Program-made: the position numbers and the translations under genes
The notes under the pieces: model-generated
Told to the model about the DNA's origin: nothing
Seen by the model: only the letters and a program-made list of their open reading frames with translations
Database searches by the model: none
Assembly: GCA_947628445.1 (NCBI GenBank)
Contig: CANQZX010000001.1
Coordinates: forward strand, 1-34,594
Reading direction: 5' to 3'
Origin: an uncultured Bacilli bacterium
GTDB lineage: Bacteria > Bacillota_I > Bacilli_A > RF39 > UBA660
DNA: 34,594 bases
Part shown: positions 2,656 through 33,677 of the stretch, piece by piece
Layout of the letters: each line of letters opens with the position of its first letter
How positions within the stretch are numbered: the stretch's first letter is position 1

Positions 2656-3477
2656 TCAACCCCGGAAGCGATTAATACCAATTGCTAGTAAATTCTCAGG
2701 GATACGATTTCTTTTAGCAACTTTTTCTACTGAACCATTTTCCGCAATATAACGACATTCGGCTACAAAGTTACGACCTAACCGGAAATCATTAAGTAAA
2801 AAGACCACGGGTGCTAAAACTTTTGTTAATTCGGGATTTTCCCAAATACTTTTAGCAAAAATAACCATTCTTTCAGGGGCTAAAAAAGAGCCTAATTTCA
2901 TAATTTCATAAATACTATCATCAAGTTTGTCTAAAACTGCAGCTAAATCAATTTTAGATATTTCTTGTAGATAACTAGCTACACTTTTAGAATCATATTC
3001 TCGATGAGCAAAAAATAATTTCATTGCTAATTCAAATTGAATTTGGTTAAAGTTTTCCTTTTTCGCCATTTCTTCCGTATAGGTTACAAACTTAGCGTAG
3101 CCTAATAAATCTTCATAATTGTAAACATCAGGCATTTTTTCAATTAAACGGGATAGACCTTCATATAAAGCAAAAGCATAACGCCGGTCAAAGTTCATTA
3201 GTTTATTCATCATACTTGAAGCAAGAGCCATTTCCTTATCTTCTAACTTATGTCTTTCCATTTGTTTATATAAACCCACGGTTCCATGTAAAATTAAGTC
3301 TTCTTGCCACTTAATATAATCTTCTTCCAGCTTTTTGTCAAAAGGCGGAAAAGAGAGTTCTCCTTGATAAGATAACTCTGTTCCATCACTAAAATACAAT
3401 TTTTGATCATCAAAATTAAGTGTATGTTCCCTTTTTTCTTCGATAACTTTCTTTGCTAGAGTACCACTTAAATACAT
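2656..3477 (-). CDS. hypothetical protein (no recognisable family)
   Basis: 276-aa ORF with its own promoter. The likely start is the ATG at 3477, preceded by GGGTGA. I recognise no motif in it. Confidence 0.6.
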   Translation of the reverse strand: MYLSGTLAKKVIEEKREHTLNFDDQKLYFSDGTELSYQGELSFPPFDKKLEEDYIKWQEDLILHGTVGLYKQMERHKLEDKEMALASSMMNKLMNFDRRYAFALYEGLSRLIEKMPDVYNYEDLLGYAKFVTYTEEMAKKENFNQIQFELAMKLFFAHREYDSKSVASYLQEISKIDLAAVLDKLDDSIYEIMKLGSFLAPERMVIFAKSIWENPELTKVLAPVVFLLNDFRLGRNFVAECRYIAENGSVEKVAKRNRIPENLLAIGINRFRG

Positions 3478-3500
3478 CAAAATCACCCACTTGGCTGCCT

Positions 3501-3528
3501 ATTATATCATTTTTTAGTAATTTTGCAA
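3501..3528 (-). promoter_or_regulatory. sigA-type promoter for the 2656-3477 gene
   Basis: Minus strand reads TTGCAA (3523-3528), a 16-nt spacer, then TGATATAAT with TATAAT at 3501-3506. Confidence 0.5.
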
Positions 3529-3549
3529 GTTTTTCCACTTTTTATGATT

Positions 3550-4875
3550 TTAATCCATTGCTAAACGATAAGGATTTAATTGCGTTCCATTGCCTTTCAA
3601 TAATTTAGTTTGAGAATTTAAATAAAAAACCGGTCTTATCAAATTATTAATGGTATCAGACACTGAATTTGGATGGCCTATACTACCACTTGAAGAAACA
3701 AAAAAACTATGGGATGTACTAGTATTATTATGGGTAATAGTCCATTCAAATAAACCAAGATATAACCAATTTTCTTCAATCGCCGAACGATAATCGGCAT
3801 TATCAGCGCCAGATGTAACTTTTGACCAATTATTAGGTAAAGCTGCATACATATAATCAGAAACATACATGAGTCCAATATAATTGGAATAAAATTGAGG
3901 ATTGGTTTTTGTTAATTCTTTATTAAAAACCGCTTTAGCATTACTTACGGCAATTTCTGACCAAGATCCTCCAGTTATATTCCAATCATGAAACATAATT
4001 AATTTTCGCCATTTTTCCTTTAAATAAGTATTATAGTAAAAATCATTTAAATTATTTTTATTTAAACGACTTTCAAGCCAATTATTAGTTCCTGTACCAC
4101 CTGTTTCTTGTGCTCCATTCCAAAAATAAGTGGCTTTATTTTTAAAATGGGTATTTTCTAAGCGATAAGTACTAAGGGGATTACTAGTAATAGTTTGAGC
4201 ATAATCACCAATTCCTTCACCACCGGTTTGGTCAATAGTTGTATAATCTGCTTTAATTAATTTCATTTCATATTGATTATCATTGTTTAAAAAAAAGCCA
4301 ATTATTTGATATAAATTTTCAATATTACAATTATCATCATCACTATTAAAACAAACAAAATTATTTACTGTTTCTCTTTTCCCCGTATATCGATAACTTA
4401 AATCTTCCGCCTCTAAATTATAATTTTCCATGCCATCATAGTCGGCCTTCCCATCATGATAAATTAGTGCACTATCCTTTTGATAGTTTTGAGTAAAACA
4501 TTCACTCATGTTTTGACCACGACATAAACTAGCGATATTATCCTTATCTAAGTATACATAGCATTTATCACTTTTATCCGCTATTACTTTTACCTTTCCA
4601 TCTTCAAAACTTATTTTACTACCATTTTCACATTTACTTAATTTAGCATTAAATACATATCCCTCTTGAACAAAACTAGCATCTTTACTTTCCTCATACT
4701 TACCTGTTCCTGCTTCACTTTCGAGCATCATACTTATAAAATTATTATTTTTAACTTTTTCCTCGTTAGAAATTATTTTAGCTACAGGATTATTATCTTG
4801 ATAAATTATAATTATGATATTTAATAATAACCAGGTAATTAATATTATATTTAAAAAGGAAAATTTAGTTTTCAT
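3550..4875 (-). CDS. membrane-anchored surface protein, paralog A (conserved N-terminal module plus variable C-terminal module)
   Basis: The ATG at 4875 follows AGGTGA. An N-terminal hydrophobic anchor FSFLNIILITWLLLNIIIIIY is present. Residues up to about 167 are nearly identical to paralog B. The C terminus carries IGLMYVSDYMYAA, IRPVFYLNS and GNGTQLNPYRL motifs. Confidence 0.8.
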   Translation of the reverse strand: MKTKFSFLNIILITWLLLNIIIIIYQDNNPVAKIISNEEKVKNNNFISMMLESEAGTGKYEESKDASFVQEGYVFNAKLSKCENGSKISFEDGKVKVIADKSDKCYVYLDKDNIASLCRGQNMSECFTQNYQKDSALIYHDGKADYDGMENYNLEAEDLSYRYTGKRETVNNFVCFNSDDDNCNIENLYQIIGFFLNNDNQYEMKLIKADYTTIDQTGGEGIGDYAQTITSNPLSTYRLENTHFKNKATYFWNGAQETGGTGTNNWLESRLNKNNLNDFYYNTYLKEKWRKLIMFHDWNITGGSWSEIAVSNAKAVFNKELTKTNPQFYSNYIGLMYVSDYMYAALPNNWSKVTSGADNADYRSAIEENWLYLGLFEWTITHNNTSTSHSFFVSSSGSIGHPNSVSDTINNLIRPVFYLNSQTKLLKGNGTQLNPYRLAMD

Positions 4876-4925
4876 TTTCTTCACCTATTTTCCCCTTTAT
4901 TATATATATATATATATATATGCAA
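4384..4925. repeat. direct repeat copy A (5' half-kilobase of the gene plus 5' UTR plus promoter)
   Basis: By-eye alignment with 5712-6253 shows only scattered substitutions over about 540 nt. Confidence 0.85.
4899..4925 (-). promoter_or_regulatory. promoter with a (TA)n spacer for paralog A
   Basis: Minus strand reads TTGCAT (4920-4925), a 15-nt all-T/A alternating spacer (4905-4919), then TATAAT (4899-4904). The uninterrupted alternating tract spans 4901-4921 (21 nt). Confidence 0.6.
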
Positions 4926-4931
4926 GTTTTT

Positions 4932-6203
4932 TTAATTCATTGCTATACGATAAGGTTTTTCTTTAGTACCATTACCACTGATAAGATTGATCGTTGGTTT
5001 AAGATAAAAGGCTGGTCTTACAGTATAAATATAAGATACTTTATCATATATGATATAGCCTCCAAATGCAAATAATACACCTTGTTGAGGATACATGACT
5101 AATTCCCAATATTTAGGATACAACCAATCAATATTTCTAAAAGTAATATTAGGATCTACATTACATAAATGTCCCTCACCATCATTACCACAAGAGTTCC
5201 AATACTTATTTTCAGCAGCATAAAAATAATCCGATATATACATTAATCCTATTTTAGCATCAACGGTTGCTATTTCTTTATTATTATCAATATTATATAA
5301 TTCTCGAGCATTAAGACGAGAAGGATGTTTTTCATCAAGTAAATTGCTGTTATTGGCCGTAATCCATTTATGACTATTAATATAGTTTTGCCATATAGAA
5401 TTTAAATAGCTATTTAAATAATAACCATTTAAATTAATGTTATTTAAATTACTTTCAGCCCATAACGGCTTAGAAGCATCGCCATTACTAGTATTCCAGC
5501 AATACCGAATAGTATTATTGTCATCTGTTCCACAATAAGCTCCATTTGTACCTAAATGTTTAGTTGATGCTTCCGTAGCTTTAATTAATTTTGCTTCATA
5601 ATTTCCTTCTTCATTTTGAAAGAAACCAATGATGCGATATAAATTATCTTCTAAACAAACCTCATCATTAGAATTAAAACAGACATAATTATTAACAACA
5701 TCATTAGTTCCCGTATATCGATAGCTTAAATCTTCCGCTTCTAGTTCATAATTTTCCATGCCATCATAGTCGGCCTTACCATCATGATAAATTAGTGCAC
5801 TATCCTTTTGATAGTTTTGAGTAAAACATTCACTCATATTTTGACCACGACATAAACTAGCGATATTATCCTTATCTAAGTATACATAGCATTTATCACT
5901 TTTATCCGCTATTACTTTTACCTTTCCATCTTCAAAACTTATTTTGCTACCATTTTCACATTTACTTAATTTGGCATTAAATACATATCCCTCTTGAACA
6001 AAACTAGCGTCTTTACTTTCCTCATACATGCCTGTTCCTGCTTCACTTTCGAGCATCATACTTATAAAATTATTATTTTTGACTTTTTCTTCGTTAGAAA
6101 TTATTTTGACTATAGGACGATTACCTTGATAAATTATAATTATGATATTTAATAATAACCAGATAATTAATATTATATTTAAAAAGGAAAACTTTGGTTT
6201 CAT
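4932..6203 (-). CDS. membrane-anchored surface protein, paralog B (same N-terminal module, different C-terminal module)
   Basis: The ATG at 6203 follows AGGTGA. The N-terminal ~167 aa are nearly identical to paralog A. The C terminus is divergent but keeps IGLMYISDYFYAA, VRPAFYLKP and GNGTKEKPYRI. Confidence 0.8.
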   Translation of the reverse strand: MKPKFSFLNIILIIWLLLNIIIIIYQGNRPIVKIISNEEKVKNNNFISMMLESEAGTGMYEESKDASFVQEGYVFNAKLSKCENGSKISFEDGKVKVIADKSDKCYVYLDKDNIASLCRGQNMSECFTQNYQKDSALIYHDGKADYDGMENYELEAEDLSYRYTGTNDVVNNYVCFNSNDEVCLEDNLYRIIGFFQNEEGNYEAKLIKATEASTKHLGTNGAYCGTDDNNTIRYCWNTSNGDASKPLWAESNLNNINLNGYYLNSYLNSIWQNYINSHKWITANNSNLLDEKHPSRLNARELYNIDNNKEIATVDAKIGLMYISDYFYAAENKYWNSCGNDGEGHLCNVDPNITFRNIDWLYPKYWELVMYPQQGVLFAFGGYIIYDKVSYIYTVRPAFYLKPTINLISGNGTKEKPYRIAMN

Positions 6204-6253
6204 TATCCTCACCTATTTTCCCCTTTATTATATATATATATATATATTGTCAA
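5712..6253. repeat. direct repeat copy B (5' half-kilobase of the gene plus 5' UTR plus promoter)
   Basis: Partner of 4384-4925. Confidence 0.85.
6227..6253 (-). promoter_or_regulatory. promoter with a (TA)n spacer for paralog B
   Basis: Minus strand reads consensus TTGACA (6248-6253), a 15-nt alternating spacer (6233-6247), then TATAAT (6227-6232). The uninterrupted alternating tract spans 6229-6247 (19 nt). Confidence 0.65.
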
Positions 6254-6262
6254 GGTAACGAA

Positions 6263-6482
6263 GTTACTATTCACAGATAAATTATGCAAAAATAATTTTT
6301 CCCACTTTTGGTATTAAAATTGATATAAAATTGGAAATTAAAATCTAAAAAGTAAATATTTTTTGTATACTTCTCCCACTTTGAAGAAAATGGTGTTTTT
6401 AACAACTTTTTTCTGAAATAACTGCAAACCAATATATTATCTAGATTTGCGAGTTTTTTTAAAAAAATCTGTGAATAGTAAC
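6263..6482. mobile_element. MITE-like non-coding element (220 bp) with 16-bp perfect terminal inverted repeats and a flanking 9-10-bp direct duplication
   Basis: GTTACTATTCACAGAT at 6263-6278 is the exact reverse complement of ATCTGTGAATAGTAAC at 6467-6482. GGTAACGAA(G) sits immediately outside both ends, at 6254-6262/3 and 6483-6491/2. The interior has only a low-complexity 80-aa ORF. Confidence 0.5.
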
Positions 6483-6527
6483 GGTAACGAAGCTTTGCAC
6501 ATATGATTATCAAGGCAAAAAATTCTC

Positions 6528-7397
6528 TTATTTGGCGTTATCATCTATTAGATTACAATGCGTACTAGTACATTTTTCATTCTTTAATTCCAGTTCAATA
6601 GTCGAGTGTTCAATATGCCATTTGGCTAGCATATTCCGAATATCTGCCTTTATCTTACTACTATAACGGTTACAAACAACATGCATGGTGGCAAAATTAT
6701 GATAGCCATCAATACTGCGTAAATGAAAATGGTGGATATCAATAATACCGTTAATTTTCATTAATTCTTGCTTTAACTTGGCTAAATCAATATCCGCGGG
6801 CACTTTTTCGAAAAATAAATCCATAATTTTTTGAACTTGGCAGCCCGCATGATAGAAAATATATAAAGCCACAGCAATCGAAAGAACAGCATCCAAATAA
6901 GTAATTTGGGTTATGCGCATAATAATAGCCCCAATTAAAACTACAACCCAGCCCAAAACATCCTCTAACATATGTAGATTAACGGCCTTTTCATTTAAGG
7001 AGTTACCATCTTTAGTATAAAGACAAGCTAGTAGATTAATCGCTACACCCAAAATGGCTAAATAAAGAATACCATCATAATTTAAAGGTACGGGATTAAT
7101 AATTCTTTTAATAGCCTCAATTATTACAACAAGGGAACCAATTAATAAAATAACCGTTGTAATAATGCTTCCTAAAACAGAATATCGAACATAACCATAA
7201 GTATATTTATTGTTGGCTTTTTGATGACTCTTTTTTTCTAAAATAAAGGATAAGCCAATACTTAAAGCATCGCCAAAATCATGCAAAGAATCTGATAAAA
7301 TGGCAATACTGCCGGTTAAAAAGCCACCAATTAGTTCAATAACCGAAAAAACTAAATTTAAAAGAAAAGCTATGAATATATTTTTAACTGTTTTCAT
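6528..7397 (-). CDS. czcD: cation diffusion facilitator family metal exporter (CzcD/ZitB-like)
   Basis: The N-terminal region LLNLVFSVIELIGGFLTGSIAILSDSLHDFGDALS is typical of the CDF family. Six TM segments are apparent, with a His-rich cytoplasmic tail region. Confidence 0.8.
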   Translation of the reverse strand: MKTVKNIFIAFLLNLVFSVIELIGGFLTGSIAILSDSLHDFGDALSIGLSFILEKKSHQKANNKYTYGYVRYSVLGSIITTVILLIGSLVVIIEAIKRIINPVPLNYDGILYLAILGVAINLLACLYTKDGNSLNEKAVNLHMLEDVLGWVVVLIGAIIMRITQITYLDAVLSIAVALYIFYHAGCQVQKIMDLFFEKVPADIDLAKLKQELMKINGIIDIHHFHLRSIDGYHNFATMHVVCNRYSSKIKADIRNMLAKWHIEHSTIELELKNEKCTSTHCNLIDDNAK

Positions 7398-9807: not shown

Positions 9808-10506
9808 TTATTTTAATAAGGCCTTGGTTATTGTTACTTTTTCGCAACTATCACTTTTTTCATTATAAGTATATTCCTCGCTTGAGCACTTTTTAGTTGC
9901 TGTTCCTGTTTCTGTTTCCACACATTTAGAACCCTCTAATTCACCCTTCGTACAAGAATAAGTTGTTATTACTTTAACCGACTTATGACATTTAAAATCG
10001 TTGCCTAAAGTATAACCATCTTCACATTTAGCAATACTTTTTGCTTCCGCGGGGGTTTCATAACAATCTTCATTTGGTCCTTGACGACAAATCCGAATGA
10101 TACAAGCGCCATCTTTAACTCCTACTGCTTGATAATAATAACCATTACTTTCTTGATGTTGCGTGTAACTTTCCATACACTCATAATCAAATCCTGGTTG
10201 TTTCGTATCCGTAGTACTTAGACACATATCACCCTTTAGTTCATAACCAGTAGCGCAGCTTTTGTTTGCTTTAGCATTAGTTGTCGTTGTTTTAACACAC
10301 TTGCCATCGGTTACTTTAAAACCTTCTTCGCATTCGATAATAGCTTCTTCCGTAGCCACAACTTCACAATTTTCACCCTTTAGCGTGCCTTCTTCACAAT
10401 AATATTCTTTTTCGTTTGCTTTAGTTTCTTTGGTCTCTTTACTACCACAACCGGCAAAAGTTAAGACAAGGATTCCACACATTAAAATACTAAATAACTT
10501 TTTCAT
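9808..10506 (-). CDS. Cys-rich modular lipoprotein, family member 4 (most divergent)
   Basis: Signal peptide with lipobox LTFAGC. The mature part has 16 Cys arranged in repeated C-x2-G-[YFT]-x-[LV]-x-G-x2-C modules. The N and C termini are homologous to 11000-13142. Confidence 0.8.
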   Translation of the reverse strand: MKKLFSILMCGILVLTFAGCGSKETKETKANEKEYYCEEGTLKGENCEVVATEEAIIECEEGFKVTDGKCVKTTTTNAKANKSCATGYELKGDMCLSTTDTKQPGFDYECMESYTQHQESNGYYYQAVGVKDGACIIRICRQGPNEDCYETPAEAKSIAKCEDGYTLGNDFKCHKSVKVITTYSCTKGELEGSKCVETETGTATKKCSSEEYTYNEKSDSCEKVTITKALLK

Positions 10507-10521
10507 TTTTCTCCTATTTAA

Positions 10522-10983
10522 TTAATAATATACGACAACAACGCCATCATCCCGTGTTGAATTCTCAGGATCATAAATATTGTATGATACCCCATACCAA
10601 GTAGTACCACAATCATCGACAATTTCATCACAATTTACGGTAAATACCCGACTATCAACATTATCCGTTATATCAAAGAAGGCCGTACTTTGACTTTCTT
10701 TCGTGCATTCTTCTTTAGTTGCATAAAAATATTTATAATTTTTTGTAAATTTTTTGGGCGTACAAGTTTCAGTTGGAGTAGTTGTCGGAGTTTCTTCTGG
10801 AGTTTCTGTAGGGGTTTCTTCTAATTTATCTTGGGTTTCTTCTTTTTCTTCAACATCAGTTACCTTATCATCAACTACCGGAGCCGTAATATTGGTTTCG
10901 GTATTAACCTTTTCTTTATTGCCACATCCCGTTAAAAAGAAAATACAAAATAAAGCTATAACGATACCATATATCTTTTTCAA
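10522..10983 (-). CDS. lipoprotein with a Glu/Pro/Thr-rich linker (unrelated to its neighbours)
   Basis: TTG start after AGGAAGTGA. Lipobox FLTGC. Linker EETPTETPEETPTTTPTE, then a 4-Cys C-terminal domain. Confidence 0.7.
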   Translation of the reverse strand: MKKIYGIVIALFCIFFLTGCGNKEKVNTETNITAPVVDDKVTDVEEKEETQDKLEETPTETPEETPTTTPTETCTPKKFTKNYKYFYATKEECTKESQSTAFFDITDNVDSRVFTVNCDEIVDDCGTTWYGVSYNIYDPENSTRDDGVVVVYY

Positions 10984-10999
10984 AATATCACTTCCTAAA

Positions 11000-11205
11000 T
11001 TATTTTTCTAAGGCCTTCGTGGTCGTTATTTTTTCACATTGCTTACTTTCGGCATTATAAGTAAAACCATCAGTTTTACAAGTATTGGTTACCTCTTTAG
11101 TATCCGTAATCGTACATTTTGAACCACTTAATTTTCCTTCAGCACAAGTGTAGCTTGTTTTAACGGTACTTGTTTTATAACATTTACCATCAATTTCTTT
11201 GGTAT
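11000..11205. repeat. conserved 3' block of the lipoprotein genes (copy 1 of 3)
   Basis: About 200 nt nearly identical to 11733-11938 and 12447-12652. It encodes ...KCTITDTKEVTNTCKTDGFTYNAESKQCEKITTTKALEK. Confidence 0.8.
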
Positions 11206-11716
11206 CACTAGAACATGCCGTAACTGTAGTATATTCTGTTCTATTAATTTCCCCTCCATCGCATTTGCCTTCATACCAATGTGTACAAGCGCTATACCAA
11301 CATTCACCATTTTCTTCGTAAACTGTATTTTTGCTTGTTTTACCATCAATATCAGTATATTCACCAATATCAAATTCTTTAGGTAAACGGCATTCTTGAG
11401 TAGTCACTTTATCATAAGTTTCATTACTTAAACAAGTACTGCCACTTAAAGTAAAACCTTCACTGCAAGTTTTGGTGGCGGTAGCATTCATCGTTGTCGT
11501 TTTAACACATTTGCCATCCGTTTGTTTATAACCATCTTCACATGTTGCCACAGCTTCTTCGGTTTCAACTGCTTCACAATTTTTTCCTTTTAAAGTTCCT
11601 GTTTCACAATAATATTCTTTTTGATCTTCTTTTGTTTCCTTGGCTTCATTACTACCACATCCCGCAATAGTTAAAACTAGGATTCCACATAATAAAATAC
11701 TTAATCCTTTTTTCAT
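11000..11716 (-). CDS. Cys-rich modular lipoprotein, family member 3
   Basis: The ATG at 11716 follows AAGGAA. Lipobox LTIAGC. Shares the same N-terminal and C-terminal modules. Confidence 0.8.
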   Translation of the reverse strand: MKKGLSILLCGILVLTIAGCGSNEAKETKEDQKEYYCETGTLKGKNCEAVETEEAVATCEDGYKQTDGKCVKTTTMNATATKTCSEGFTLSGSTCLSNETYDKVTTQECRLPKEFDIGEYTDIDGKTSKNTVYEENGECWYSACTHWYEGKCDGGEINRTEYTTVTACSSDTKEIDGKCYKTSTVKTSYTCAEGKLSGSKCTITDTKEVTNTCKTDGFTYNAESKQCEKITTTKALEK

Positions 11717-11732
11717 AAAATTCATTCCTTAA

Positions 11733-11938
11733 TTATTTTTCTAAGGCCTTCGTGGTCGTTATTTTTTCACATTGCTTACTTTCGGCATTATAAGTAAACC
11801 CATCAGTTTTACAAGTGTTAGTTACTTCTTTAGTATCGGTAATCGTACATTTTGAACCACTTAATTTTCCTTCTTTACAAGTATAAGTTGTTTTTACGGT
11901 ACTTGTTTTATAACATTTACCATCAATTTCTTTCGTAC
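11733..11938. repeat. conserved 3' block of the lipoprotein genes (copy 2 of 3)
   Basis: See 11000-11205. Confidence 0.8.
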
Positions 11939-12425
11939 CACTTGGACAGGCATTAACTGTCGTTGGTTCATATTCTTCTATTACACCATCCATACATATA
12001 TCATCTCTGTATTTAACACACATAGATGTTGAACATTTGCCTTCATCATTCAAACTACCTTTTGTAAAACCTTCAGCCGCTAAATCTTGAGGTAAAATAC
12101 ATTCTTGCGTTGCTACTTTTTCGGTTGCTTCATTACTGACACATGTACCGCCATTTAAAGTATAGCCATCACTACAAGTTTTCGTAGCTGCAGCTTTTAT
12201 AGTCGTCGTTTTAACACATTTACCATCTGTTAGTTTATAGTCATCTTCGCACGTTGCCACAGATTCTTCTGTTTCAACTGTTTCACAATTTTTTCCCTTT
12301 AAAGTTCCTGTTTCACAATAATATTCTTTTTGATCTTCTTTGGCTTCTTTAGCTTCATTACTACCACATCCCGTAATAGTTAAAGCTAAGATTCCACATA
12401 GTAAAATATTTAATGCTTTTTTCAT
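11733..12425 (-). CDS. Cys-rich modular lipoprotein, family member 2
   Basis: Lipobox LTITGC. The N-terminal roughly 90 aa and C-terminal roughly 66 aa are nearly identical to its neighbours, while the core is different. Confidence 0.8.
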   Translation of the reverse strand: MKKALNILLCGILALTITGCGSNEAKEAKEDQKEYYCETGTLKGKNCETVETEESVATCEDDYKLTDGKCVKTTTIKAAATKTCSDGYTLNGGTCVSNEATEKVATQECILPQDLAAEGFTKGSLNDEGKCSTSMCVKYRDDICMDGVIEEYEPTTVNACPSGTKEIDGKCYKTSTVKTTYTCKEGKLSGSKCTITDTKEVTNTCKTDGFTYNAESKQCEKITTTKALEK

Positions 12426-12446
12426 AAAAATTTCTTCCTTCCTAAA

Positions 12447-12652
12447 TTATTTTTCTAAGGCCTTCGTGGTCGTTATTTTTTCACATTGTTTACTTTCGGC
12501 ATTATAAGTAAAGCCATCCGTTTTACAAGTATTGGTTACTTCTTTCGTATCGGTAATGGTGCATTTAGAACCACTTAATTTGCCTTCTTTGCAAGTATAA
12601 GTCGTTTTTACGGTGCTTGTCGTATAGCATTTGCCATCGACTTCTTTCATAC
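12447..12652. repeat. conserved 3' block of the lipoprotein genes (copy 3 of 3)
   Basis: See 11000-11205. Confidence 0.8.
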
Positions 12653-13142
12653 CATTTTCACAGCCTAATTCATAAATTGGTTCAACATAATCTTCATAGC
12701 AATCGGTACCATCAGCATTTTGACAAATTTGCACGATACATTTATGATCTTCCGCCCGCACTGAACGATAGTAATAATTTCGTTCCGGATCATAAGCAAA
12801 TTTTTCTTGAATGCCACCGCGACAAGCGGGAACTAATTCACGATCGACACCAGTTTTGCTAAGGCAACTACCATTTTTAAGTTCATAACCATCACTGCAA
12901 GTTTTGGTGGCTGTAGCTTTTACGCTTGTTGTTTTAACACATTTACCATCGGTTAATTTATAACCATCTTCGCAAGTTAACTCGGCTTCTTCCGTGGCTA
13001 TAACTTCACAATTTTGGCCCTTTAATGTACCCTCTTCGCAATAATATTCTTTTTGATCAACAAGCGCTTCTTTTGTTTCACCACAGCCAGCAAGTGTTAA
13101 AATAAGCACACCACATAATAAAAATTGCATAGTTTTTTTCAT
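12447..13142 (-). CDS. Cys-rich modular lipoprotein, family member 1 (operon-proximal)
   Basis: The true start is the ATG at 13142 (MKKTMQFLLCGVLILTLAGC), 8 nt after AGGAG. The ORF-track N-terminal extension merely reads through the TA tract. The core resembles that of member 4. Confidence 0.8.
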   Translation of the reverse strand: MKKTMQFLLCGVLILTLAGCGETKEALVDQKEYYCEEGTLKGQNCEVIATEEAELTCEDGYKLTDGKCVKTTSVKATATKTCSDGYELKNGSCLSKTGVDRELVPACRGGIQEKFAYDPERNYYYRSVRAEDHKCIVQICQNADGTDCYEDYVEPIYELGCENGMKEVDGKCYTTSTVKTTYTCKEGKLSGSKCTITDTKEVTNTCKTDGFTYNAESKQCEKITTTKALEK

Positions 13143-13167: not shown

Positions 13168-13196
13168 ATTATATATATATATATATATGAACGCAA
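13168..13196 (-). promoter_or_regulatory. promoter with a (TA)n spacer for the lipoprotein operon
   Basis: Minus strand reads TTGCGT (13191-13196), a 17-nt spacer made of TC plus 15 nt of alternating A/T (13174-13190), then TATAAT (13168-13173). The uninterrupted alternating tract spans 13170-13188 (19 nt). Confidence 0.65.
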
Positions 13197-30912: not shown

Positions 30913-31857
30913 TTAATCCATCCTTACTATATCTTTATAATTTTGAGGGAATCCCATTTCTTCTAATATTTTATCAATACTGATGGTTTTTAACCGTCCG
31001 GCTAAAATATCCAATTCGTATTCAATTTCACGCATTAACAAATTGAAATTATCGCGATTTAATAACTGTTTTAACATAATAATTAAAGCAAATAAATCGT
31101 TTTTTCCTTTAACATAACCATCTTCCCCTTGAGGAATATTTAATAAATTATGATATTTTGTATCTTCAATTGCCTTATGCGTTTTATTATTATAACAAAT
31201 ATCTTCATGAGCACATAAGTTCCGATAATTCGCAATTATAGGTAAGTATTCTACCATGCTATAAATATCGCTATTAAATAATTCGGCTATTTCTCTTTGA
31301 TCTTGGGCTTGCAAAACTGTATAAAGTTCACTGACAATCCCAAAGGATAAAACTTTCACCACAACCCAAAGGGGGATATAACCATAATAATCAATAAAGT
31401 GTGCCGTGGCTGTATGTTGCCGCCCATTAATACTAATTTGTCTTTTCATCTTTCGAATTAAGTCATTAACTTGTCTTTTCTTTGTCGGATTTTGGACAAA
31501 ATTTCGCGGATTTAAATAATTATTTTCTTTAAACCCATGATTTTTACTCATAACATATGCCAAAATACTTTTTAAGTTATTTTCCACAATCAAAATATTT
31601 TTAAAAATAATATTTCGGAGTTGCCGATCAAAACTAAAAACCGCATAAATTTCATTGAAATTAGTTCCTGGGATAAATGATTTTTCATATATATCAGATT
31701 TAATAAATAGATGCCGATAACCACTTAAAAAGAAATAGTTTTCCCGTAAAAGAATATTTTTGGCATTATCGATATCATCAATTACTAAACCTTTATTCTT
31801 TAATATTTCAATTTGCTCATCCAATGTCTTAAAGGTTTTTGATTTCACTAGCACCAC
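30913..31857 (-). CDS. Abi_2 (AbiD/AbiF-like) abortive-infection family protein
   Basis: The N terminus FKTLDEQIEILKNKGLVIDDIDNAKNILLRENYFFLSGYRHLF closely follows the Abi_2 family consensus as I remember it. A later LCAHED motif is present. The start may be the GTG at 31851. Confidence 0.75.
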   Translation of the reverse strand: MVLVKSKTFKTLDEQIEILKNKGLVIDDIDNAKNILLRENYFFLSGYRHLFIKSDIYEKSFIPGTNFNEIYAVFSFDRQLRNIIFKNILIVENNLKSILAYVMSKNHGFKENNYLNPRNFVQNPTKKRQVNDLIRKMKRQISINGRQHTATAHFIDYYGYIPLWVVVKVLSFGIVSELYTVLQAQDQREIAELFNSDIYSMVEYLPIIANYRNLCAHEDICYNNKTHKAIEDTKYHNLLNIPQGEDGYVKGKNDLFALIIMLKQLLNRDNFNLLMREIEYELDILAGRLKTISIDKILEEMGFPQNYKDIVRMD

Positions 31858-31921: not shown

Positions 31922-32572
31922 TTAAGTATAATAATTTACGACGGCCTGGGCTATTAAAGATGCCATTTTTTGTTGGTAGTTACTACTAATAAGTAAGTTT
32001 CGTTCACTGGCATTTGATAAAAAACCACATTCAATTAAAACTCCTGGTACCTCCAAATGTTGATACATATAAGTTGAAGACGGAATCTTTTTAATTTCTC
32101 GCGTTCCTTTTAAGTTTTGATTTAAATATTTCTGAATACTTTCCGCCAAGTTTTTATTATCTTTATTATAAAAAACTTGGACTCCCGAATATGCATGATT
32201 GGTTAAATAATTTAAATGAATTGATAAATACATATTGGCTTTACTTTCATTAATAAGTTTAATCCGGTTATCAAAATCACTTTTTTTACGATGATTAGCA
32301 TGTGGCGTACTTAAATCATAATCGCCATCCCGCGTTAGAATAACTGTGGCCCCATATCTACTTAAATATTTTTCTAAGGCCAAACTAATCTTTAAATTAA
32401 TATCTTTTTCATAAATATCGCCATACATAGTGCCCGGATCTTTAAATCCGTGACCGGCATCAACAACAATAATTTTGCCTAATAAAGGCATTTCAGCATA
32501 AGCACTATTTGTCCATGCCAAAATAGATACCACCCCAAAGATAATAAAAATTTTAATATAATAATATTTCAT
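31922..32572 (-). CDS. cwlD: N-acetylmuramoyl-L-alanine amidase, CwlD-like (Amidase_3)
   Basis: N-terminal anchor, VVDAGHGFKDPG, DINLKISL, LTRDGD and YLSIHLN motifs. The size fits CwlD, but a sporulation role is not proven. Confidence 0.65.
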   Translation of the reverse strand: MKYYYIKIFIIFGVVSILAWTNSAYAEMPLLGKIIVVDAGHGFKDPGTMYGDIYEKDINLKISLALEKYLSRYGATVILTRDGDYDLSTPHANHRKKSDFDNRIKLINESKANMYLSIHLNYLTNHAYSGVQVFYNKDNKNLAESIQKYLNQNLKGTREIKKIPSSTYMYQHLEVPGVLIECGFLSNASERNLLISSNYQQKMASLIAQAVVNYYT

Positions 32573-32804: not shown

Positions 32805-33677
32805 CTATTTTTGCTTACTATTTTCCAAAATGTAATAATCTATTGTTGGTATTGTTTTTATAAGAAAAACATATTCAGTAAAATACATTAATATCTCCGA
32901 AGAATCTCCCTTTGAATAATATCCTTCGGGAACATCATCATTTCTTGACATTGTACCTTTAAAAAATTTGATAAAGTGAGGATTTGCCTTATTTATTTTA
33001 GACAAATATTCCTTAGCTTTTTGGTCATTCCCTTGTTTATAATAAAGGACAAATAAGGGAAATAGCATTTCCAAGTGTTGCTCGGGATATTTTTTATGTA
33101 ATTTAAGCATCTCATTTTCATCTTCTAAATAAGCATATATTGCCATGAGTAAATATCTAGCACCAGTATTATCATTTTCATTTAATCTAAGAATTTCCTC
33201 ACAAATACTTAAAGCTTGTTTTATCTTACCATCTAATAGTAGGAACTTTGCTTTCATGTATAGTCCCCTAATATAAGGCCTAGTTTCAAAAAGTCCATAA
33301 AAATGGCCAATGTTATCCTTTTTAAAGTAATTTTCGTTTTTTAACCTGTTTTTTTCAAATTCTAATCCTTCCTCTAATAATTTTTCACTTTTTAAAGGAT
33401 TGTCCTCCAATTGAACTTGAAATAATAAAGCATCAAAACATTCTGGACACATATCATATGCTTTTTTTGCATATTTTAGTGCTTGAGCCTTTGATTTAGC
33501 ATTTTCTGCTTTTTCTAAAAGTTCATATGCATTATCTAATAAGGTGTTTTCATATTCAATTTCATCTGCATTGTATTTTTTTATAAATTCTTGTAATTTT
33601 TCATTTAATTCTTTTTCATCTTTAGCATCTACATTTTTTAAAAACTCATTAATCATATTATTTAATTTATTATTCAT
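32805..33677 (-). CDS. TPR-like helical repeat protein (hypothetical)
   Basis: 290 aa with repeated A-x-x-Y-x-x-K-A type helical hairpins. No specific family recognised. Confidence 0.55.
   Translation of the reverse strand: MNNKLNNMINEFLKNVDAKDEKELNEKLQEFIKKYNADEIEYENTLLDNAYELLEKAENAKSKAQALKYAKKAYDMCPECFDALLFQVQLEDNPLKSEKLLEEGLEFEKNRLKNENYFKKDNIGHFYGLFETRPYIRGLYMKAKFLLLDGKIKQALSICEEILRLNENDNTGARYLLMAIYAYLEDENEMLKLHKKYPEQHLEMLFPLFVLYYKQGNDQKAKEYLSKINKANPHFIKFFKGTMSRNDDVPEGYYSKGDSSEILMYFTEYVFLIKTIPTIDYYILENSKQK

Follow-up and report, generated by a model that had tools for sequence, protein, structure and literature searches.

In M. mycoides, Vmm expression is switched when dinucleotides are inserted into, or deleted from, the spacer of its promoter (Persson et al. 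2002, as summarized in PMC2628566 and PMC10502178). In the M. mycoides cluster, lipoprotein genes have poly-TA tracts of 10-16 units in front of them (PMC3053259). [quoted passage not shown] 1993, as summarized in PMC2651432), and some copies of hifA have poly-A in place of TA (PMC2651432). In M. hyorhinis, the promoters of the vlp genes contain a poly(A) tract (Citti and Wise 1995, as summarized in PMC10502178).

We analyzed a stretch of 34,594 nucleotides from an uncultured Bacilli bacterium (hereafter, the window), in which two tandem paralogous genes, A and B, each lie behind a putative promoter with a (TA) tract. The element upstream of paralog A resembles the Vmm promoter in carrying a perfect (TA)n tract of ~10 units between –35 and –10, in preceding multicopy genes for predicted surface proteins with conserved 5′ ends, and in showing unit-step length differences between copies; both hosts live in animals, are low in G+C and belong to the Bacilli/Mollicutes radiation. 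The promoters of the Vmc variable lipoproteins, which Wise et al. are said to have described in 2006, reportedly hold (TA)n in the spacer as well. Yet A and B appear unrelated to Vmm in sequence and differ from it in having no lipobox, a putative N-terminal membrane helix, a length of ~430 aa and a lectin-like module. Vmm belongs to a mycoplasma pathogen. The present host lives in the gut, is uncultured and, to judge from the FemAB and BacA/UppP genes of the window, probably possesses a cell wall. Moreover, switching was shown experimentally for Vmm, whereas here we infer it from sequence.

The other two systems are matched in part. As in hif, the spacing of –10 and –35 depends on a TA repeat, and the homopolymer in some hifA copies parallels the alternation of (TA)n and poly-T in the present family. 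But in hif, whose host is Gram-negative, the tract is shared by two promoters that overlap and diverge, whereas the present promoter is unidirectional and is repeated before tandem paralogs. With vlp, the family shares the arrangement of a multigene surface-protein family in which every gene has its own repeat-containing promoter and combinatorial expression is possible, and its poly-T members resemble the vlp type. In contrast, the vlp tract is a homopolymer rather than a dinucleotide repeat, and vlp products are lipoproteins with repetitive C-termini. The class of mechanism is well known; the proteins (A and B are like no named family) and the host differ from the known systems. A limited literature search, which cannot prove absence, found no paper linking this gut Bacilli lineage to phase variation.

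We consider it rather probable that the element upstream of paralog A is a slipped-strand phase-variable promoter of the sigma-70 type, carried in a travelling cassette, which would be weak or off with a 15-nt spacer and on with a 17-nt spacer.

Promoter anatomy and repeat tracts in the window

Upstream of paralog A, a perfect simple-sequence repeat lies between recognizable –35 and –10 hexamers (Table 1). Read on the minus strand from the stop of paralog B into the leader of paralog A, the order is AATTAA AAAAAC TTGCAT ATATATATATATATA TATAAT AAAGGGGAAAATAGGTGAAGAAAATG. The tract contains the entire spacer and overlaps both hexamers. A first-pass annotation of this DNA had placed the hexamers at these positions, with a 15-nt spacer wholly inside a 21-nt tract; the minus-strand sequence agrees with the former placement and Tandem Repeats Finder with the latter. 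A 17-nt spacer at this promoter was considered and rejected, as it needs ACTTGC as –35 or TAATAA as –10, both of them poor hexamers.

Table 1. Features of the window, numbered from its first nucleotide
Feature	Position	Strand	Source or remark
–35 hexamer TTGCAT, paralog A promoter	4920..4925	-	sequence
–10 hexamer TATAAT, paralog A promoter	4899..4904	-	sequence
Spacer, 15 nt, alternating A/T throughout	4905..4919	-	sequence
Perfect (TA)10.5 tract, 21 nt	4901..4921	.	Tandem Repeats Finder
Short conserved leader AAAGGGGAAAATAGGTGA with Shine–Dalgarno AGGTGA (4886-4881)	4881..4898	-	motif recurs in relatives
Paralog A, 441 aa: putative N-terminal membrane helix, beta-rich N module, then lectin-like module	3550..4875	-	
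Paralog B, 423 aa	4932..6203	-	
Sister promoter of paralog B: TTGACA (6253-6248), 15-nt spacer, TATAAT (6232-6227)	6227..6253	-	sequence
(TA) tract of paralog B promoter	6229-6247		Tandem Repeats Finder
Third (TA)-tract promoter: TTGCGT (13196-13191), 17-nt spacer, TATAAT (13173-13168)	13168..13196	-	
Third (TA) tract	13170-13188		Tandem Repeats Finder; absent from the first-pass annotation

One revision concerns the translation start. Paralog A had been started at GTG 4884, a codon that lies inside the Shine–Dalgarno sequence. This sequence stands 5 nt 5′ of ATG 4875, and public gene calls give the 441-aa product, making ATG 4875 the likelier start. Exact-protein look-ups found the ATG-start form of A; they returned no record for the GTG-start forms and none for the ATG-start form of B.

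Chance cannot reasonably account for the tract at 4901-4921. Across the window we counted 13 occurrences of the 12-mer TATATATATATA, each inside one of three (TA) tracts, versus 0.07 expected from dinucleotide-preserving shuffles. These three tracts are also the only dinucleotide repeats of at least five units in the window, which holds no homopolymer of 9 or more. With a G+C content of 31% for window and genome alike, a chance low-complexity run in A+T-rich DNA with no regulatory role might be suspected, or else an assembly artefact. Either idea can be regarded as already refuted, given the excess over shuffled sequence, the independent recovery of the tract in other assemblies, and its presence at the same position in five other species.

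No Rfam family was found near the promoter. Nor did it show the marks of an invertible promoter: no inverted repeat pair was noticed around 4899-4925 when the sequence was read by eye, and no recombinase domain turned up among the ~27 window proteins scanned, a set that leaves out ORFs including 126-1022, 31922-32572 and 32805-33677. Elsewhere in the window, the ORF at 30913-31857, which is surrounded by housekeeping genes, encodes an Abi-like domain (PF07751) of the abortive-infection family.

Promoters of the sigma-70 type perform best with a 17-bp spacer and poorly with one of 15 bp. The promoters of A and B have the shorter spacing and that at the third tract the longer. The third tract heads an array (9808-13142) of four Cys-rich lipoprotein paralogs and one unrelated lipoprotein, with lipoboxes in all five. 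It looks like a second contingency locus and, with its optimal 17-nt spacing, is probably in the on state. Look-ups around this tract gave nothing, or short contigs ending before it.

Near the sister promoter we observed a perfect 16-nt inverted repeat (6263-6278 and 6467-6482, GTTACTATTCACAGAT and ATCTGTGAATAGTAAC) flanking 188 nt. The end of its proximal arm lies 9 nt from the –35 of paralog B, on the upstream side. No further copy of the repeat is present in the window, and the other loci lack it. In contigs of the same species, L002 starts within the proximal arm, and the 188-nt segment of L169 is oriented as in the window. The arrangement may represent a segment able to invert, the remnant of a mobile element or paired sites for a regulator.

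Tandem paralogs and the junction between them

As proteins, A and B are 55% identical overall, with identities of 95% over residues 1-165, 55% over residues 166-205 and 29% over the remainder. Their genes match at 90% over 682 nt, from the base just before the –35 to near codon 205. Promoter, leader and N-terminal module therefore form one cassette that was duplicated or homogenised. The earlier view of the A promoter as a second copy of that of B is borne out, since the homology of the cassettes begins exactly at the –35. A further claim, that the two proteins differ only in their C-terminal modules, needs modification: residues 1-165 are nearly identical, and the remainder is a diverged version of the same region and not simply a different module.

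Paralog A has 1142 homologs, all unnamed, and neither A nor B matches any entry in Pfam or NCBIfam. An AlphaFold model of paralog A, built with 40 homologs (mean pLDDT 83.6), has an N-terminal helix at residues 7-28, a beta-rich module and then a mixed alpha/beta module. The helix is presumably a membrane anchor; no lipobox cysteine was seen in the N-terminal regions of A and B. Together with the number of homologs and the several paralogs per metagenome-assembled genome (MAG), the helix marks A and B as putative surface proteins, their exposure being predicted from topology only. The sole significant PDB match of the model was the Thomasclavelia ramosa IgA peptidase 9qa6 (Foldseek E = 6e-6, 319 columns); a profile search of PDB sequences gave no match. 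This peptidase has a ~290-residue N-terminal C-type lectin-like domain (PMC12237041). The portion of 9qa6 matched by paralog A is presumed to be that domain. Reading of the sequences showed no HExxH motif in A or B, so they are not peptidases of the IgAse type.

The stop codon of paralog B (4934-4932) is followed by six bases, AAAAAC, and the –35 of A begins at the seventh base past the stop, which matches the distance of 7 nt given earlier. No terminator-like site lies between the genes (3300-6700 was examined, and the one site found is inside gene A), and shuffled sequence folds at least as stably as the RNA of 4860-4990 (z = 0.35). For the same two reasons, the (UA)n run was rejected as a terminator hairpin. 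Both the site search and the fold thus agree with the first-pass annotation, which had seen no terminator here and had raised the possibility of read-through from B. Because B has no terminator downstream, A may also be transcribed by read-through, in which case the two switches would be partly coupled. The "four combinatorial states" once proposed for the pair presuppose independence, which read-through from B would break.

This junction also raises the question of whether the A promoter is a vestigial copy, duplicated with the gene and inactive, so that A would be expressed solely by read-through from the B promoter. The closeness of the A –35 to the B stop is in keeping with this, as are the lack of both a terminator and a stable structure between the genes and the 90% identity of the two cassettes from the –35 on. 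Still, we find it quite unlikely. The –35, the purity of the tract, the –10 and the leader of A are all intact, whereas a decaying copy should accumulate tract interruptions. The –35 of A differs from that of B (TTGCAT versus TTGACA) yet is still a good hexamer. Moreover, the same internal arrangement is retained in another species: in L016, a family gene ending in PYRLNLN and a stop codon is followed by a few bases, TTGCAA, (TA)n, TATAAT and the next paralog.

Repeat-containing promoters in related genomes

An alignment-based scan of GTDB species genomes yielded 510 relatives, while a scan of GTDB genomes with a single protein query found none; the species of the window itself is seemingly missing from the representative genomes. 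Like the homologs of paralog A, the relatives all stem from MAGs of gut Bacilli or "Tenericutes" that are uncultured and that each carry several paralogs. The best 80 of the 510 come from MAGs from rabbit, human (Hadza, UMGS) and chicken (Candidatus Onthocola) and from Firmicutes CAG:460; among these 80, there are often 4-7 family copies per MAG.

In the first 83 related loci (484 kb), every (TA) tract of at least six units (16/16, 15 of them distinct) lay sense-upstream of a family ORF. Another 80 loci, taken from metagenomes, had (TA) runs of 10-11 nt outside the promoter position but no tract of at least 12 nt, and the DNA pattern TATAATAAARGGGAAAATAGGTG had no match in the metagenome collection. 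TTGnnn abuts, overlaps or is within 2 nt of the 5′ end in all 16 related tracts. Of these tracts, 11 are followed by TATAAT; the –10 of the remaining five (L007, L033, L034, L036 and L079) can be read as TAAAAT or, in L079, as TATAAT spanning the tract end. A repeat tract is found at most 300 nt upstream of 35 of 156 family ORFs versus 2 of 368 other ORFs in the same loci, and of 28 of 80 ORFs with the same N-terminal architecture. The (TA)-type cassette was seen only in the window and in five rabbit-gut Bacilli MAGs. Downstream of the –10, the leader motif GGG(G)AAAATAG(A)GGTG recurs in many relatives, of (TA) and poly-T types alike. Two 49-aa members of the protein cluster (P0122 and P0123, from L164-L166) were discarded as spurious, having no DNA similarity to the window and no TA tract.

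Spacer lengths, read by hand in a tally of 16 that includes the three tracts of the window, fell into two classes. Twelve loci have 15 nt (window A, window B, L003, L007, L009, L010, L011, L015, L016, L026, L033 and L036) and four have 17 nt (L034, L049, L079 and the third tract of the window); spacers of 13 or 19 nt were seen at none of the 16. Exactly one TA separates L033 from L034, two paralogs of a single MAG whose flanks are nearly the same. An equal difference separates L003 from L049, the flanks of which are similar. In L026, the 15-nt spacer is made by GA plus a shorter tract.

Other relatives have poly-T in the same upstream position, with lengths of 14-27 overall and T16 to T27 in the genome set. 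L021, for example, reads TTGA, T18, G, TATAAT, GGGGAAAATAGAGGTG, ATG, with a leader conserved as in the (TA) type. Tract length differs between orthologs with matching flanks in contigs from human-gut metagenomes (T17 in L091 versus T14 in L092), and one flank group of such contigs includes T18, T19, T21 and T24. An interrupted tract, T8CT8, is present in L032. Some family members lack a repeat altogether: in L012, L020, L023, L055 and L060, palindromes lie inside or beside the promoter spacer and the upstream gene is divergent. This arrangement suggests that these members are under repressor control instead of slippage.

Many contigs end close to family genes. L002, L005, L006, L008, L009, L013 and L030 start less than ~100 nt upstream of one, in several cases in or beside a repeat tract (L005, for instance, begins with T16). 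At its end, L013 (1-55) carries ~3.5 tandem copies of a 15-nt unit (AGGCTTCGGGATAAG) directly upstream of the family gene. Such ends fit assembly breaks at repeated cassettes or at tracts of heterogeneous length.

For a comparison within the species, we used three ENA contigs (L001, L002 and L169; samples ERZ27249530 and ERZ27249541) that are ~99.5% identical to the window. At the consensus level there was no variation in length: tract A is the same in L001, and tract B is the same in L002 and L169. The comparison is a weak one, involving consensus contigs of 2-4x coverage from neighbouring sample accessions, whose strains may not be independent.

Two of these contigs depart from the window elsewhere. 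In L002 (1-720, ERZ27249541; compared with window 4230-6290), the B promoter and first ~125 B codons are joined to the body of A, with the crossover within a 59-nt stretch identical in A and B; this is either a real deletion fusing the tandem paralogs or an assembly collapse. In L001 (560-620, ERZ27249530; compared with window ~5240), paralog B contains extra sequence whose +1 frame would encode AKNDVNSQNYIGLMY, and a frameshift at an A run splits the gene in two ORFs. Coverage is low, and the differences in L001 may be sequencing error.

The constancy of tract length leads to another explanation, that the promoter is real and does not switch. Its (TA) spacer would be a fixed 15 bp, easily unwound and flexible, making it dependent on supercoiling or a regulator, and selection would hold its length. 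Consistent with this, 15 nt is found at 12 of the 16 loci, across six species, and L026 keeps that length in spite of its shorter tract. The identical tracts in L001, L002 and L169 point the same way, as a weak test, and regulator-type control does exist in the family, in the form of palindromic operators in the spacer with a divergent upstream gene. But a mere need for A+T would tolerate interruptions, and all the (TA) tracts are perfect. A fixed length also sits poorly with near-identical paralogs exactly one unit apart (L033 and L034), and with homologous cassettes whose poly-T runs range from T14 to T27 and differ between orthologs. As a matter of general knowledge, moreover, a 15-bp spacer is poor for sigma-70-type polymerases. 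We therefore regard a non-switching promoter as unlikely, though deserving of serious attention, and favor one that varies by slippage.

A candidate contingency promoter

Tract purity, promoter anatomy, the exclusive tie to promoters of predicted surface-protein genes, unit-step differences between copies and the interchange with poly-T argue together for a slipped-strand phase-variable promoter. The element itself is real, and it is probably functional. Its promoter activity, the assignment of 15 nt to off and 17 nt to on, and switching within a population are predictions drawn from sequence comparison.

The cassette comprises the –35, the repeat tract, the –10, a short leader that holds the ribosome-binding site, and the region encoding the putative N-terminal membrane anchor and the conserved N module, and it travels with the surface-protein gene family. 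In the mechanism we propose, slipped-strand mispairing in replication would add or remove TA units, shifting the distance between –35 and –10 in 2-bp steps. A spacer of 15 bp would be too short for good recognition by RNA polymerase, leaving the promoter weak or off, and the gain of one TA would bring it to the 17-bp optimum and turn it on. Each paralog would be switched stochastically and heritably; with the B promoter on, A might be transcribed by read-through too.

Because 17 bp is optimal and 15 bp poor, the sequenced state of A and B is more likely to be weak or off than on, and one added TA would turn either promoter on. If most family copies were silent in the majority population, an excess of 15-nt over 17-nt spacers such as the observed 12:4 would be expected, and the lack of 13- and 19-nt spacers would mean that every copy is kept one step from on. 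The interpretation offered in the first-pass annotation was largely sound; the switching in it is a prediction, and the present state is probably off.

A broader picture can be sketched tentatively, and we hold it with less than even confidence. Uncultured gut Bacilli with a probable cell wall (MAGs from rabbit, human and chicken that once bore the label "Tenericutes") may run a large phase-variable set in the style of mycoplasmas, with dozens of membrane-anchored, lectin-like paralogs per genome behind homologous cassettes in which (TA)n and poly-T have been exchanged in evolution. Most copies would be parked at 15 bp, one step from 17. The resulting combinatorial surface variation could perhaps serve to evade IgA or phages, and B might in addition be controlled by inversion via the 16-nt repeats.

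For pathogens, among them Neisseria, Haemophilus, Campylobacter and the mycoplasmas, there is ample documentation of phase variation driven by repeats; to our knowledge, it has barely been charted in uncultured gut commensals. If the tracts switch, the window would hold three contingency promoters within 9 kb and, on the comparative data, an uncharacterised surface-protein family of more than 1000 members would be tied to repeat-controlled expression. Tract switching may also help explain the frequent contig breaks upstream of family genes, as would repeated cassettes. Population heterogeneity could be read directly from metagenomic reads. Finally, the analysis flags a family of lectin-like proteins that may interact with the host or with phages.
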